Sequence record: NC_019399.1
Origin: Escherichia phage vB_EcoM_ACG-C40
Strand: one strand, 5' to 3'
DNA: 64,000 bases
The notes below the pieces were generated by a model that worked only from the letters and a program-made list of their open reading frames with translations, had not been told where the DNA came from and did no database searches. The position numbers and the translations under genes were made by a program. Shown piece after piece: positions 3,365-7,983 of the stretch; the first letter of the stretch is position 1; every line of letters begins with the position of its first letter.

Positions 3365-3673
3365 CCTTGCGGCAACCTTGTCGGGGTTCCACCTGCTAAG
3401 GCAAGTGTTTGTACGAAACGCCGGGATTCGAACCCGGTTATTAAGCAGTTGACGCTACTCAATATTTTTTAAAAGGCCATATCTCGACCATATCCGAACG
3501 TTCCGTCAAAAACGCTACTCGGCTTACGGCAAAGATATTTCCTCGAATCGATAATTCGGTGCGCCGTTTCTGCTGTGATGTAAGGGGACATTAACAAAAC
3601 ATAAAGATTTATTAATGCCAGTCCTTAAACAGGGAACATCAGTCCGACGACTTACCGGTAGCGACCCGGTTTC
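3365..3673 (-). ncRNA. candidate small stable RNA region downstream of tRNA-Arg
   Basis: About 300 nt with no ORF, a tRNA-like T-arm (CCGGG-TTCGAAT-CCCGG on minus strand), duplicated GAGTAGCGT motif, ends at terminator 3334..3360. Confidence 0.25.
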
Positions 3674-4042: not shown

Positions 4043-4118
4043 TGGTCGAGGCAGTAGGGATCGAACCTACGACCCAGGACTTAGAAGGTCCTTGCTCTTC
4101 CTTCTGAGCTATGCCCCG
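4043..4118 (-). tRNA. tRNA-Arg (anticodon UCU)
   Basis: 76-nt cloverleaf folded by hand; anticodon loop CTTCTAA; T-loop TTCGATC; encoded CCA. Confidence 0.8.
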
Positions 4119-4122
4119 TAAT

Positions 4123-4198
4123 TGGGGTGACCGATGGGAGTCGAACCCATGACTACGAGAATCACAATCTCGAGTTCTACCAACTGAACTACGGCCAC
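4123..4198 (-). tRNA. tRNA-His (anticodon GUG)
   Basis: 76 nt; acceptor GTGGCCG/CGGTCAC; anticodon loop TTGTGAT; discriminator C; CCA encoded; no encoded G-1. Confidence 0.7.
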
Positions 4199-4312
4199 AT
4201 TAATACCTACTCCAACAATCATGATGTCTTCACACGAAATTAAGAGAAGAGTGATCAGTTCAACCCCTATAATCGCGTCAAGTAGATATTAATGTGACAG
4301 TTGTCACAAATT

Positions 4313-4387
4313 TGGCGGACGTGATAGGATTCGAACCTATAACCAATCGCTTAACAGGCGATCGCTCTGCCATTGAGCTACACATCC
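4313..4387 (-). tRNA. tRNA-Asn (anticodon GUU)
   Basis: 75 nt; anticodon stem ATCGC/GCGAT, loop CTGTTAA; discriminator G; CCA encoded. Confidence 0.75.
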
Positions 4388-4391
4388 AAAT

Positions 4392-4478
4392 TGGTGGGGA
4401 GTGATGGAGTCGAACCACCCGAGTCGCAATGACAATGAATTTACAGTCCACACCGCTACCTCTACGGGATAACTCCCC
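4392..4478 (-). tRNA. tRNA-Tyr (anticodon GUA), long variable arm
   Basis: 87 nt; anticodon loop CTGTAAA; T-arm GGTGG-TTCGACT-CCATC; discriminator A; CCA encoded. Confidence 0.7.
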
Positions 4479-4490
4479 TAATTCATAATT

Positions 4491-4565
4491 TGGTGGCCCT
4501 GGGTGGAATTGAACCACCATCTGGCGATTATGAGTCGCTTGCTTGAACCTTCCAGCTACAGGGCC
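4491..4565 (-). tRNA. tRNA with CAU anticodon (Met, or Ile if lysidine-modified)
   Basis: 75 nt; anticodon loop CTCATAA; T-arm GGTGG-TTCAATT-CCACC; CCA encoded. Confidence 0.7.
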
Positions 4566-4566
4566 T

Positions 4567-4642
4567 TGGTGCTGATTGACGGAATCGAACCGCCGACCTT
4601 CTCATTACAAGTGAGTTGCTCTACCTACTGAGCTAAATCAGC
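4567..4642 (-). tRNA. tRNA-Thr (anticodon UGU)
   Basis: 76 nt; D-arm GCTC-AGTAGGTA-GAGC; anticodon loop CTTGTAA; CCA encoded. Confidence 0.8.
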
Positions 4643-4647
4643 AAAAC

Positions 4648-4737
4648 TGGCGGAGGCGATAGGATTTGAACCTATGAGTCGCCGGAGCGACTGCCGGTTT
4701 TCAAGACCGGTGCATTAAACCACTCTGCCACACCTCC
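4648..4737 (-). tRNA. tRNA-Ser (anticodon UGA), long variable arm
   Basis: 90 nt; anticodon stem CCGGT/ACCGG, loop CTTGAAA; CCA encoded. Confidence 0.8.
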
Positions 4738-4739
4738 AG

Positions 4740-4813
4740 TCTCCATACAAGGATTTGAACCTTGGACCTCCTGATCCCAAATCAGGCGCTCTACCAAACT
4801 GAGCTACACGGAG
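4740..4813 (-). tRNA. tRNA-Pro (anticodon UGG), CCA not encoded
   Basis: 74 nt; anticodon stem CCTGA/TCAGG, loop TTTGGGA; T-arm CAAGG-TTCAAAT-CCTTG. Confidence 0.75.
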
Positions 4814-4823
4814 TAAATTGAAT

Positions 4824-4897
<74 letters not shown>

Positions 4898-4902
4898 AAA
4901 TT

Positions 4903-4989
4903 TGGTGCGAGAAGTGGGACTCGAACCCACAAGGAAATCATTCCGCAGCATTTTAAGTGCTGTGCCTTTACCAATTTGACCATTCTCGC
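4903..4989 (-). tRNA. tRNA-Leu (anticodon UAA), long variable arm
   Basis: 87 nt; anticodon stem CAGCA/TGCTG, loop CTTAAAA; CCA encoded. Confidence 0.8.
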
Positions 4990-4995
4990 GTTATA

Positions 4996-5628
4996 TTATT
5001 TATTACGTGAAAAAGACTGTTCTATCAATTCTGGACACTTTCGTTCTATCCATTTTCTAGCTTTTTGTGGGCTTATACCTATTATTTTAGCAGCTTTACT
5101 AACCCATCCAAATTTAGAATAATCGATTTTAACTAATTCTTCGTAAATTTCATCAGTTAAAATCTTTTCATTAATATTTACCAGTAAATGATATAATTTG
5201 TTATCATTAGCAATTTTAATGAATCTTTTATAGTTTCCGCCTTTACTTAAACCTAATGAAGTAATTGCAGATGATATAGTAGCCGAATTTAATAATGCGT
5301 TTAAAATTTCTTCATCACTAACATTATAACGCTTTTTATTATTTTTAATATTTTTACCAGCAAAAGTATCAGTTTGCGAATGACAGTTTGGACATAATAA
5401 TCTTAAATTTGATTTAAGATGATTTTTGTTATTTCCATCAATATGGTCTAATTGTAGAACAATATGCTTATTTTGCCATTTTGAAATTTTACAAATTGCA
5501 CACTCATATGGAAAAATATTTTCTTTTATTATTTTGTCTTTTAGCTTTCCTGTACTAAAATTTGGATGTTTTCCTTCAAAAATTTCAGCTAATTTAGTAT
5601 CCATAATATGATTCCCAATTATTAACAA
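4996..5628 (-). CDS. HNH homing endonuclease with C-terminal helix-turn-helix-like DNA-binding region
   Basis: Zinc-finger HNH motif CAICK...LQLDHIDGNNKNH...NLRLLCPNCH; ORF start at 5628 is TTG, first ATG is at 5604. Confidence 0.75.
   Translation of the reverse strand: MLIIGNHIMDTKLAEIFEGKHPNFSTGKLKDKIIKENIFPYECAICKISKWQNKHIVLQLDHIDGNNKNHLKSNLRLLCPNCHSQTDTFAGKNIKNNKKRYNVSDEEILNALLNSATISSAITSLGLSKGGNYKRFIKIANDNKLYHLLVNINEKILTDEIYEELVKIDYSKFGWVSKAAKIIGISPQKARKWIERKCPELIEQSFSRNK
4996..5628 (-). mobile_element. freestanding homing-endonuclease gene abutting the 5' end of the tRNA cluster
   Basis: HNH ORF ends 6 nt from tRNA-Leu. Confidence 0.5.
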
Positions 5629-5714
5629 AGGCTCTCAAGCAAGAACCCTTGATGATAGAGGGTATTAATCAGTGCGGTATGAGTTAATAATAACAAATAA
5701 TTCTTAAAGCATAT

Positions 5715-6002
5715 TTACCATTTATGATGATACATACTTACGATGCATTCAAGACCCAAAGGATTCTTGAAAATATCATATTCAAGAGGACCTTTTTCTG
5801 TTTCAATAAAGAAATCAAAATTTACTGTATTAAATTTACGGTCTTCCTTTACTAATTTAACTTGAGAAGATGAACGGTCAATGTAAACCTTTTCAACTTC
5901 AAAACATGTTAAAATGCCATAATCATCAATCAAGGCTTTAGCTGCATCTTGATCATATTTATATCCATTTTCAATGGATGATACTTTAGCATAAAGAATC
6001 AT
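5715..6002 (-). CDS. hypothetical protein (95 aa)
   Basis: Intact ORF; last gene of a tightly packed three-gene set 5715..6588. Confidence 0.5.
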   Translation of the reverse strand: MILYAKVSSIENGYKYDQDAAKALIDDYGILTCFEVEKVYIDRSSSQVKLVKEDRKFNTVNFDFFIETEKGPLEYDIFKNPLGLECIVSMYHHKW

Positions 6003-6004
6003 TA

Positions 6005-6403
6005 TCAGCCTTCATCAACAATAGTGTGAGTATTAGCATTTACGATTTGCCACCAATCAAAGCGATTAGAATCCATCGGTTTGTTTTCATTTTCTTTGAT
6101 AATGTCACGGAGTTCATCTTCAGAGAATGCTTTAGCAATTAAATCGGTATACCCACCACGGGGATAATAATTATCACCTGCAAACAAAAGGAAATTTACC
6201 TTCCCGGAAGCAACATATGCTTCCTTAGGATACTTGTTTCCTGCGTGGTCAACCACTTCAATATAACGGTAAGGAATATCGGTTCTTTCAACCCATTGCC
6301 ATGCCGCCGCAGGGGAATCGAAAGCATCTACACCTAAACGATTATCTTCATCTTTAGACGGATTATTTTCGTAATCCGCATATACATAATATTCAACGTT
6401 CAT
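6005..6403 (-). CDS. hypothetical protein (132 aa)
   Basis: Intact ORF; start overlaps stop of 6403..6588 (ATGA). Confidence 0.5.
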   Translation of the reverse strand: MNVEYYVYADYENNPSKDEDNRLGVDAFDSPAAAWQWVERTDIPYRYIEVVDHAGNKYPKEAYVASGKVNFLLFAGDNYYPRGGYTDLIAKAFSEDELRDIIKENENKPMDSNRFDWWQIVNANTHTIVDEG

Positions 6404-6588
6404 TATTCACCTTTAGAAATTTTATCCATAACAATAGCAATTAAACCAATTAAAAATGCTACTACAAGTGAAAACACATTTTCTGCTGTAGTCAATAATC
6501 CACATATAAATCCAACAAACATTGAAAAACTAAAAGCGGAAGCAGAAATTGCAATAGCAACATTTCGAATTAATTCACAACGTTTCAT
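6403..6588 (-). CDS. small hydrophobic membrane protein (61 aa)
   Basis: Two hydrophobic segments (VAIAISASAFSFSMFVGFICGLL, FSLVVAFLIGLIAIVM); preceded by a PeSL-like promoter. Confidence 0.5.
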   Translation of the reverse strand: MKRCELIRNVAIAISASAFSFSMFVGFICGLLTTAENVFSLVVAFLIGLIAIVMDKISKGE

Positions 6589-6607
6589 TTTATTCTCCTC
6601 AGTAGTA

Positions 6608-6646
6608 GATAGGGTAATAGTATCACTACCCTATCTAAAAGTAAAC
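6608..6646 (-). promoter_or_regulatory. early-promoter stem-loop (PeSL-like)
   Basis: Minus strand GTTTAC-TTTTA-GATAGGGTA-GTGATACTAT-TACCCTATC; -10-like TACTAT in the loop. Confidence 0.55.
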
Positions 6647-6880
6647 TTATTTTTTACGAAAAATTGATTTATTTTCTGCTGCCCATTTTTCAATAACTGC
6701 AGCAGGACCAGTAACAACAATTTTATCACCGTAATCTTCTGCGGCGAGTTGACCGAAATTATCTAATGCATCACGAAGAACTCCATGAGGCATTTCACCC
6801 ATTTTATCTTTCTTGCCAGTGTAAATAAACTCAACTTTTACATCAGCAGTTTCAGCAATAAATTCTTGGTAAGTTTTCAT
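6647..6880 (-). CDS. internal head protein with capsid-targeting leader (MKTYQEFIAE)
   Basis: ORF 6647..6892; leader matches the T4 internal-protein targeting sequence as I recall it, so start placed at ATG 6880. Confidence 0.65.
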   Translation of the reverse strand: MKTYQEFIAETADVKVEFIYTGKKDKMGEMPHGVLRDALDNFGQLAAEDYGDKIVVTGPAAVIEKWAAENKSIFRKK

Positions 6881-6904
6881 TTTGATTTCCATTTGGTTTT
6901 GTTT

Positions 6905-6944
6905 TGATAGGGTAATAGTATCACAACTAAAACCCTATGTAAAC
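6905..6944 (-). promoter_or_regulatory. early-promoter stem-loop (PeSL-like)
   Basis: Minus strand GTTTAC-ATAGGGT...TACTAT...ACCCTAT; flanking sequence near-identical to the copy at 7246..7284. Confidence 0.55.
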
Positions 6945-6956
6945 AACTTTGTGAAA

Positions 6957-7214
6957 TTATTTTAAATCTTCTAATCGTTTCTTCATCTTAGAACCATTTT
7001 TAGCAATTTCTCCTGCATCGGAGCATAATGCTAAAAGTGCTTTAACTTTAGTTTGGTCTCCTTTAAAAGATGAAGGATCGACCGCAGCAGCAAGTTCTTT
7101 AATACGAGAGAAAAGACGCTCAGCTTCAGCTAAAGCCATTCCAAGCTTTACTTCCATACCGTGGGAAGATTCAGTGATAGTAGTTTTTGTAGCAAACTCT
7201 TTGAAAGTTTTCAT
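6957..7214 (-). CDS. internal head protein candidate with variant capsid-targeting leader (MKTFKEFATK...ITE)
   Basis: 85-aa ORF; leader resembles MKTYQEF; candidate gp21 cleavage site after ITE. Confidence 0.55.
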   Translation of the reverse strand: MKTFKEFATKTTITESSHGMEVKLGMALAEAERLFSRIKELAAAVDPSSFKGDQTKVKALLALCSDAGEIAKNGSKMKKRLEDLK

Positions 7215-7245
7215 TTTTATTTTCCTAATTAATTTGATGAGGTAA

Positions 7246-7284
7246 TAGTATCACTACCTCATCAGTATGTAAACAACTTTGTGA
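7246..7284 (-). promoter_or_regulatory. early-promoter stem-loop (PeSL-like)
   Basis: Minus strand GTTTAC-ATACT-GATGAGGTA-GTGATACTAT-TACCTCATCA. Confidence 0.55.
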
Positions 7285-7286
7285 AA

Positions 7287-7983
<697 letters not shown>

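Follow-up and report, generated by a model that had tools for sequence, protein, structure and literature searches.

Three small genes at positions 5715–6588 of a 64 000-nt stretch of Escherichia phage vB_EcoM_ACG-C40 (NC_019399.1; the whole stretch is referred to as the window) were identified by sequence comparison as the T4 genes trna.4, trna.3 and trna.2, which form an early operon that is dispensable and precedes the tRNA genes of the phage. The cassette itself is already known, having been part of the T4 annotation since the 1980s, and is listed as being of 'unknown function' in current genome-wide screens. New here are the resolution of Trna.3 into domains and the exchange of its N-terminal module across genera shown by sequence comparison; in this respect the N-terminal domain behaves like the adjacent internal-protein (ip) genes, with many old alleles reshuffled across genera. 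The interpretation tentatively preferred, although it remains open to considerable doubt, is that the cassette works as an accessory module of non-enzymatic character that interacts with the host, serving either takeover or counter-defence.

Identity and organization of the cassette

The window belongs to the genus Tequatrovirus, and its region 5600–6950 was 99 % identical to phages OE5505, PYps5T and KarlGJung, the last of which is BASEL phage Bas37 (MZ501089). An original prediction, made from the sequence alone, had described open reading frames (ORFs) of 61, 132 and 95 amino acids (aa), and the ORF listing of the window agreed with it exactly, with three tightly packed ORFs spanning 5715–6588 on the minus strand.

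6403..6588, minus strand: trna.4 orthologue, 61 aa; predicted two-helix inner-membrane protein; phrog_1692
6005..6403, minus strand: trna.3 orthologue, 132 aa; two-domain protein; phrog_1411
5715..6002, minus strand: trna.2 orthologue, 95 aa; soluble, mildly acidic; phrog_2023; precomputed Pfam PF27001

The T4 counterparts are T4p135, T4p134 and T4p133 (UniProt P13322, P13323 and P13324), sited between ipI and tRNA-Gln. Identity to the T4 products was 100 % for Trna.4, 64 % for Trna.3 (132 aa in the window versus 136 aa in T4) and 96 % for Trna.2, and in Bas37 the corresponding values were 100 % (bas37_0259), 100 % (bas37_0258) and 95 % (bas37_0257). Synteny with T4 also held, with the same strand and order between 57B/ip and the tRNA cluster. 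The products matched PHROGs 1692, 1411 and 2023 with E values of 6e-35 to 3e-55, none of these families being functionally annotated. All three ORFs are real genes, as each has homologues in approximately 760–800 phage records and the T4 Trna.2 and Trna.3 proteins have been seen by mass spectrometry (MS). The cassette had been placed between internal-protein genes and an HNH gene, and PHROG matches bore this out, with two internal-protein genes upstream (phrog_8111 and phrog_3499) and an HNH gene downstream (phrog_14736). The identity with T4 trna.4, trna.3 and trna.2 and the continuation of the unit into the tRNA cluster were both absent from the original prediction.

The junction between trna.4 and trna.3 reads GAA-TAATG-AAC, the TAA stop and the ATG overlapping by 1 nt at 6403, and that between trna.3 and trna.2 reads TGA-TA-ATG, leaving a 2-nt gap at 6003–6004. 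The gap was as predicted, and the supposed 'ATGA overlap' at 6403 proved to be TAATG with a 1-nt overlap. The internal starts of trna.3 and trna.2 are preceded by the Shine–Dalgarno (SD)-like sequences AGGTGA and GAAGG, and translational coupling of the three ORFs is plausible despite the 1-nt overlap.

Trna.3 and the PF26894 domain

Trna.3 is an acidic protein (isoelectric point (pI) 4.4, net charge −12). An AlphaFold2 (AF2) model based on a 20-sequence alignment (predicted local distance difference test score (pLDDT) 85.5) contained two beta-beta-alpha-beta(-beta) units connected by a linker of lower confidence, and a predicted template modelling score (pTM) of 0.49 leaves uncertain how the two domains are oriented to each other.

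6206..6403, minus strand: trna.3 N-terminal domain, residues 1–66; predicted beta-beta-alpha-beta in AF2, pLDDT ~87–91; variable, the swapped module
6005..6205, minus strand: trna.3 C-terminal domain, residues 67–132 plus stop; conserved PF26894 (Phage_T4_Y07C); motifs FxGxxYYPxGGxxD and (D)WWQIV

The C-terminal domain aligned with the stand-alone PF26894 family at an hhalign probability of 99.9 % (E = 1.7e-33), and all homologues of Trna.3 bear the precomputed PF26894 label. Alignment of the N-terminal domain with the same family was in full register (E = 1.4e-4), with a probability of only 53 % and with loss of the YYPxGG motif. The full-register match, together with the same predicted topology, suggests that the N-terminal domain is probably a degenerate duplicate of the PF26894 fold.

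When the Trna.3 profile was searched against 1.84 billion representatives (E ≤ 1e-3), 552 clusters (50 % identity) were recovered, nearly all of them proteins of 56–100 aa matching only profile positions 64–127. PF26894 is widespread as a stand-alone protein of ~60 aa in phages of Proteobacteria, Staphylococcus and cyanobacteria, and its genes sit among the small early/replication genes of unrelated phages. In its alignment F, G-G, D and W were invariant and G and Y-Y-P nearly so, within the motifs FxGxxYYPxGGxxD and WWQIVD. The domain was nearly missing from cellular genomes, with four contigs of metagenome-assembled genomes found by a pattern scan among 185 579 species genomes, and as far as such sequence searches can tell it is phage-specific. 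A phage-restricted 60-aa domain with strongly conserved aromatic/glycine motifs makes Trna.3 a sharper target for function discovery.

Two longer proteins from the profile search were considered separately. A lone fusion of an XRE-type helix–turn–helix (HTH_31/HTH_3) to a C-terminal PF26894 domain was found in a 158-aa protein (P0085), which hints that a repressor can use PF26894 for sensing or oligomerisation; it is too isolated to interpret. A second candidate fusion, in a protein of 2031 aa (P0190), was rejected as a low-complexity artefact.

Exchange of trna.3 alleles between phages

Five genera (Tequatro-, Mosig-, Dhaka-, Gelderland- and Kanagawavirus) share the gene order trna.4–trna.3–trna.2, flanked by 57B/ip and the tRNAs. 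The genes trna.3 and trna.2 abut or overlap in every genus, and extra ORFs may split trna.4 off. Kanagawavirus has an additional stand-alone PF26894-like protein of 62–63 aa between trna.4 and trna.3 (locus L010, 1704–1892; locus L011, 2688–2879), and Gelderlandvirus STML-198 has a second small membrane ORF (locus L009, 2101–2286) and a Trna.3 that consists of a single 70-aa domain. The single-domain Trna.3 and the additional stand-alone copy are consistent with ongoing duplication at the locus.

Whereas Trna.4 and Trna.2 track the genus structure of 57B, Trna.3 departs from it. Synonymous divergence (dS) between the window and T4 was 1.15 for trna.3, compared with 0.13 for trna.4 and 0.076 for trna.2. 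The Trna.3 of the window was 95 % identical to that of Dhakavirus JS98 versus 64 % to that of T4, and in the comparison of JS98 with C6 the 57B proteins were 99 % identical and Trna.3 only 64 %. The N-terminal domain was 47 % identical to its T4 counterpart, and its DNA was 88–100 % identical to JS98. Sliding DNA identity placed the exchanged block at ~6440–6160, where it spans the N-terminal domain and has its boundaries at the 3′ end of trna.4 and inside the coding region of the C-terminal domain.

Allele structure was compared in 27 two-domain Trna.3 sequences (26 database cluster representatives plus the window sequence). Fifteen N-terminal classes were distinguished at a 70 % threshold, and N- and C-terminal classes paired in all combinations, which shows intragenic recombination. 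The allele type found in the window (at least 90 % identity) was present in only ~23 % of records. Judged by these comparisons, trna.3 is a mosaic hotspot whose N-terminal domain is swapped between phages and genera.

The ratio of non-synonymous (dN) to synonymous divergence between the window and T4 was 0.38 for the N-terminal and 0.12 for the C-terminal domain of Trna.3, and ranged from 0 to 0.38 over the three genes, all of which are under purifying selection. As dN/dS was below 1 in both domains, the diversity of trna.3 reflects the shuffling of old alleles.

Trna.4 and Trna.2

The two helices predicted for the 61-aa product were recovered as hydrophobic segments at approximately residues 10–33 and 38–56, with K/R at both ends, a pattern that fits a two-helix membrane hairpin of N-in/C-in topology. 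Homologues of Trna.4 were found in 789 phage records, at least 99 % identical in 427 of them and at least 95 % identical in ~64 %, and with a dN of 0 versus T4 it was the best conserved of the three products.

These features bear on an alternative in which Trna.4 leads the cassette in a membrane function (superinfection exclusion, DNA-entry/ion control or lysis timing; cf. T4 Imm, Sp and rI) and Trna.3 and Trna.2 are cytoplasmic accessories. The two-helix hydrophobic protein with positive charge at both ends, its high conservation, its early expression and the second small membrane ORF next to trna.4 in Gelderlandvirus all speak for it. On the other hand, no described membrane family was matched (the sole Pfam hit, DUF7554, was sub-threshold at E = 0.064), in Kanagawavirus and Gelderlandvirus intervening ORFs separate trna.4 from trna.3, which indicates a loose link to the soluble pair, and genome-wide screens showed no phenotype, although such screens do not probe exclusion. 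This alternative is considered very unlikely. The same insertions weaken the original suggestion of a module made up of a membrane protein and a soluble partner, as the conserved tight pair is trna.3–trna.2.

Trna.2 is mildly acidic (pI 5.1) and belongs to a narrow family; it was at least 90 % identical in ~62 % of records. Its AF2 model was unusable (pLDDT 52.6) and was left out of the fold search. The possibility that Trna.2 is a further PF26894-like protein was rejected (hhalign probability 0.2 %).

Expression and dispensability

In T4, trna.2 and trna.3 are expressed early, both as RNA and as protein detected by MS, and trna.4 RNA is early, with the Trna.4 protein undetected (PMC9697503 supplement). 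HIDEN-SEQ insertion saturation of the three genes was 0.92, 0.975 and 0.94 in T4 and 1.0, 0.90 and 1.0 in Bas37, all of them being non-essential in both phages, and all three were scored 'Not Fit' by CRISPRi-ART, a knock-down with dCas13d (PMC11879866). The three genes are therefore dispensable in laboratory E. coli. None of T4 trna.2–4 was among the reported T4 HIDEN-SEQ hits. The conditional fitness results considered here for Bas37 refer to two clinical E. coli hosts, CFT073 and CFE299; only a few hosts and defence systems have been assayed.

Such results would be expected if the ORFs had little or no present function, as passenger ORFans of a hyperplastic region that are kept by linkage to a promoter feeding the tRNAs, the diversity of trna.3 being neutral mosaicism. 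No phenotype was seen in the T4 and Bas37 saturation data, in CRISPRi-ART or in the Bas37 CFT073/CFE299 screens, and the locus is recombination-prone and rich in promoter-early stem-loop (PeSL) elements, with homing endonucleases inserted nearby. Against this stand the purifying selection on all three genes (dN/dS 0–0.38), the intact ORFs and conserved order across five genera and ~800 genomes, the invariant motifs across 552 PF26894 clusters and the production of the Trna.2 and Trna.3 proteins in T4. A cassette with little or no present function is considered very unlikely.

The promoter/stem-loop element

The original prediction that the cassette is driven by its own stem-loop promoter was supported by a promoter and 14-bp hairpin sequence element found ahead of trna.4.

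6595..6646, minus strand: PeSL-type early promoter/stem-loop and ribosome-binding site, predicted from sequence and fold
6613–6646, 6911–6944 and 7241–7274, minus strand: three copies of one PeSL type, by sequence match

The element comprises, in order, the A/T-rich region AAAAAATAA upstream of the −35, a GTTTAC −35 (6641–6646), a 17-nt spacer and the extended −10 TGATACTAT (6617–6625; pattern TGnTACTAT), of which the −10 hexamer lies at 6617–6622. The 5′ arm of a hairpin at 6606–6637 (14-bp stem, −19.8 kcal/mol, z = −3.4 by fold computation) falls within the promoter spacer, whereas the 3′ arm lies beyond the −10, and the SD sequence GAGGAG at 6595–6600 is located 6 nt ahead of the trna.4 ATG. 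The core GTTTAC-N14-GTGATACTATTACC was found in three copies in the window versus none expected by chance, one ahead of each ip gene and one ahead of trna.4; T4 carries the same element before ipI and before trna.4 (PeSL at locus L001, 7540–7580). The trna.4 promoter scored 8/12 to the sigma-70-like consensus, under the threshold of a generic scan, and its core is identical to those of its two neighbours, which pass.

PeSLs have been described as composite early promoters and attenuators that flank shuffled ORFans in T4-type phages (PMC2839356, PMC4122927), and the element ahead of trna.4 fits this description as a predicted sigma-70 early promoter of the PeSL type, overlapped by a stem-loop. 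The hairpin would form only on read-through RNA from upstream, because RNA initiated at this promoter would not include the 5′ arm, and the stem is not a canonical intrinsic terminator, as no U-tract follows it. The 5′ half of the T4 trna.4 PeSL is the same as that of the PeSL before the first ip gene (ip77) in the window, whose own trna.4 PeSL has a different spacer. Such shared halves look like the footprint of insertion of an ip cassette through recombination inside PeSLs.

Linkage to the tRNA genes

Two features lie downstream of the cassette on the same strand.

4996..5628, minus strand: HNH homing-endonuclease ORF between trna.2 and tRNA-Leu; phrog_14736; replaces the body of tRNA-Gln
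4043..4989, minus strand: phage tRNA cluster of 10 tRNAs, downstream of the cassette

A consensus scan of the minus strand found nothing resembling a terminator in the interval from the cassette to the tRNAs. As ten same-strand tRNA genes follow with no such site in between, the cassette probably forms the 5′ segment of the transcript that carries the tRNAs and is co-transcribed with them, and the same arrangement of cassette and tRNAs was found in five Tevenvirinae genera. Transcription of the T4 tRNAs reportedly begins ~1 kb upstream of tRNA-Gln, which is the position of this promoter.

The ORFs could accordingly be viewed as the translated leader of the tRNA operon, with their products or their translation serving tRNA expression, maturation, protection or translation reprogramming. 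In all Tevenvirinae genera examined the cassette precedes a same-strand tRNA cluster by 100–900 nt despite differences in the tRNA sets, and the missing terminator points the same way. However, the soluble proteins Trna.3 (pI 4.4) and Trna.2 (pI 5.1) are acidic and without an RNA-binding or enzyme motif; PF26894 genes in other phages are unlinked to tRNAs (none or one distant tRNA at four loci); and insertions in the ORFs cost no fitness, just as the HNH gene splits the cassette from the tRNAs in the window without apparent harm. A role as a tRNA leader is therefore regarded as unlikely.

Homology to T4 ends 7 nt into tRNA-Gln (TGGGAAT) and picks up again just before tRNA-Leu, with breakpoints at 5614 and 4990, and tRNA-Gln was absent throughout the window. 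The same replacement of tRNA-Gln by HNH was seen in OE5505 and Bas37, and OE5505 also has a coding sequence at the expected tRNA-Thr site. Downstream of the tRNA cluster, ARAGORN called a 96-nt 'tRNA-???' with a two-base anticodon at 3411–3506 (minus strand). This RNA had no Rfam match at the gathering score and may be the counterpart of the T4 stable RNAs rnaC/rnaD rather than a tRNA.

Neighbouring ip genes and 57B

The genes upstream of the cassette are as follows.

6647–6880 and 6957–7214, minus strand: two internal-protein genes, 100 % identical to bas37_0260 and bas37_0261
7287–7742, minus strand: gene 57B, identical to T4 57B save for the extra N-terminal Met of T4

The ip ORF listed as 81 aa (6647–6892) probably starts at its second ATG, giving a product of 77 aa (ip77). 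Its equivalent bas37_0260 has been newly reported to inhibit type IV restriction by McrBC (HIDEN-SEQ preprint). The 57B product has been identified in published work as Acb1, an anti-CBASS phosphodiesterase, and Bas37 57B insertion mutants lose fitness in CFT073 (log2 fold change (log2FC) −1.56, q = 0.003). The ip/57B neighbourhood is a hyperplastic arms-race hotspot in which the ip genes are PeSL cassettes.

Possible function of the cassette

The statement of the original prediction that none of the products has a recognised motif was upheld, since searches of Pfam, NCBIfam, PADLOC, PHROGs, PDB sequences and predicted folds matched no functionally described family, and no homology to housekeeping proteins, named beforehand as the finding that would overturn a reading of unknown function, was found for any product. 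Scans of Pfam (in a copy without PF26894), NCBIfam and PADLOC gave only sub-threshold matches to DUF7554, TusC and XapX, with no PADLOC family at E ≤ 1 for the three proteins. Sequence-profile searches of the PDB with the Trna.2 and PF26894 alignments gave no match, the fold search of BFVD matched only uncharacterised phage proteins and no solved-structure relative of PF26894 was found. In the published literature no function paper was found for trna.2, trna.3, trna.4, PF26894 or PF27001.

The host-interaction module is favoured, still tentatively, because the genes are early and dispensable yet conserved, the proteins are acidic, the domain is phage-restricted, the allele dynamics are ip-like and the neighbourhood includes 57B (Acb1) and bas37_0260. 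The acidity of Trna.2 and Trna.3 favours protein or ligand binding over nucleic-acid binding. In such a module Trna.3 would act as a binder, whose constant C-terminal domain may contact a conserved partner or ligand, possibly Trna.2, as its gene is always coupled to trna.3, and whose interchangeable N-terminal domain may recognise targets that differ between strains. Trna.4 would sit in the inner membrane, where it would either be an anchor with a loose association to the others or have a function of its own.

Several results weigh against this interpretation. In Bas37, log2FC values for bas37_0257, bas37_0258 and bas37_0259 were between −0.15 and +0.06 (q = 1) in the comparisons of K-12 with CFT073 and of K-12 with CFE299, whereas in the same tables bas37_0260 scored strongly in each host and CFT073 also brought out bas37_0261 and 57B. 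Loss of fitness on defence-bearing hosts, which marks conditionally essential counter-defence genes, was thus not seen for the cassette in the Bas37 data for these two hosts, nor were its genes among the hits discussed for other Bas37 hosts or for Mokosh (HIDEN-SEQ preprint). The three products showed no homology to housekeeping, defence, anti-defence or any characterised families in the Pfam, NCBIfam, PADLOC, PHROGs, PDB and fold searches. dN/dS was below 1 in both Trna.3 domains and positive selection is undemonstrated; Trna.2 did not covary with the N-terminal alleles of Trna.3, and the interaction of these two proteins is inferred from gene coupling only. At the four loci studied, stand-alone PF26894 genes had no conserved neighbour and neither a Trna.2-like nor a membrane protein beside them.

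In a DRT1 pulldown (PMC13275509), only two T4 proteins were enriched with the wild type relative to the reverse transcriptase-dead form; one of them was Trna.2, whose enrichment could also reflect altered infection progress. A bolder proposal is that PF26894 represents an extensive and so far unrecognised family of effector domains used early by phages (e.g. a sponge or inhibitor of a broadly conserved host factor or signal). In T-even phages it would have been duplicated into a two-domain protein, with the N-terminal copy as an interchangeable specificity module traded between genera to track variable host targets, and this protein would work with the DRT1-pulled Trna.2 and with Trna.4 as a counter-defence complex; this is speculative and, on balance, improbable. 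The original suggestion of an exclusion or anti-defence role was neither refuted nor directly supported, and is consistent with early expression, dispensability, the ip/57B position and the shuffling of trna.3. If a host target exists, it would be exposed by swaps of trna.3 alleles in otherwise isogenic T4/Bas37, and a function for PF26894 would annotate hundreds of phage ORFans together.

Comparison with known systems

The cassette resembles T4 trna.4/3/2 and bas37_0259/0258/0257 in gene order, strand, position from ip to tRNA and the promoter/stem-loop. It differs from T4 in its Trna.3 allele, the N-terminal domain of the window being of the JS98/Bas37 type, and in having two ip genes upstream instead of ipI and HNH instead of tRNA-Gln downstream.

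Like the PeSL cassettes of T4-type phages (Arbiol et al. 2010, PMC2839356; Comeau et al. 2014, PMC4122927), trna.4 is preceded by a predicted sigma-70-like promoter with an A/T-rich upstream region, a stem-loop over the spacer/−10, and then the SD and ATG, and the element is repeated before the neighbouring ORFan/ip genes. Unlike in those cassettes, the swapped unit here (the N-terminal domain of trna.3) has no flanking PeSLs, and the recombination anchors are conserved coding sequence, namely the 3′ end of trna.4 and the PF26894 C-terminal domain.

In the polymorphic ip locus of T-even phages, IPI acts against GmrSD, and Ip2/Ip3 are covered in PMC12373910. The locus is adjacent to the cassette, and both encode small early or injected accessory proteins with many deeply diverged alleles that are traded among phages whatever the genus, which is an arms-race signature. 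Trna.2, Trna.3 and Trna.4 differ from the ip products in having no ip-type N-terminal capsid-targeting sequence, no virion annotation and no known restriction-inhibition phenotype, and no conditional fitness effect was seen for them where the ip genes show one.

Finally, small counter-defence binders and sponges, such as Acb2, Tad1/Tad2 and the small anti-CRISPRs, offer only a functional analogy and a lead. Shared with these are small size, acidity, early expression, dispensability, restriction to phages and an alpha/beta fold, as well as a wide occurrence in single-domain ORFs.

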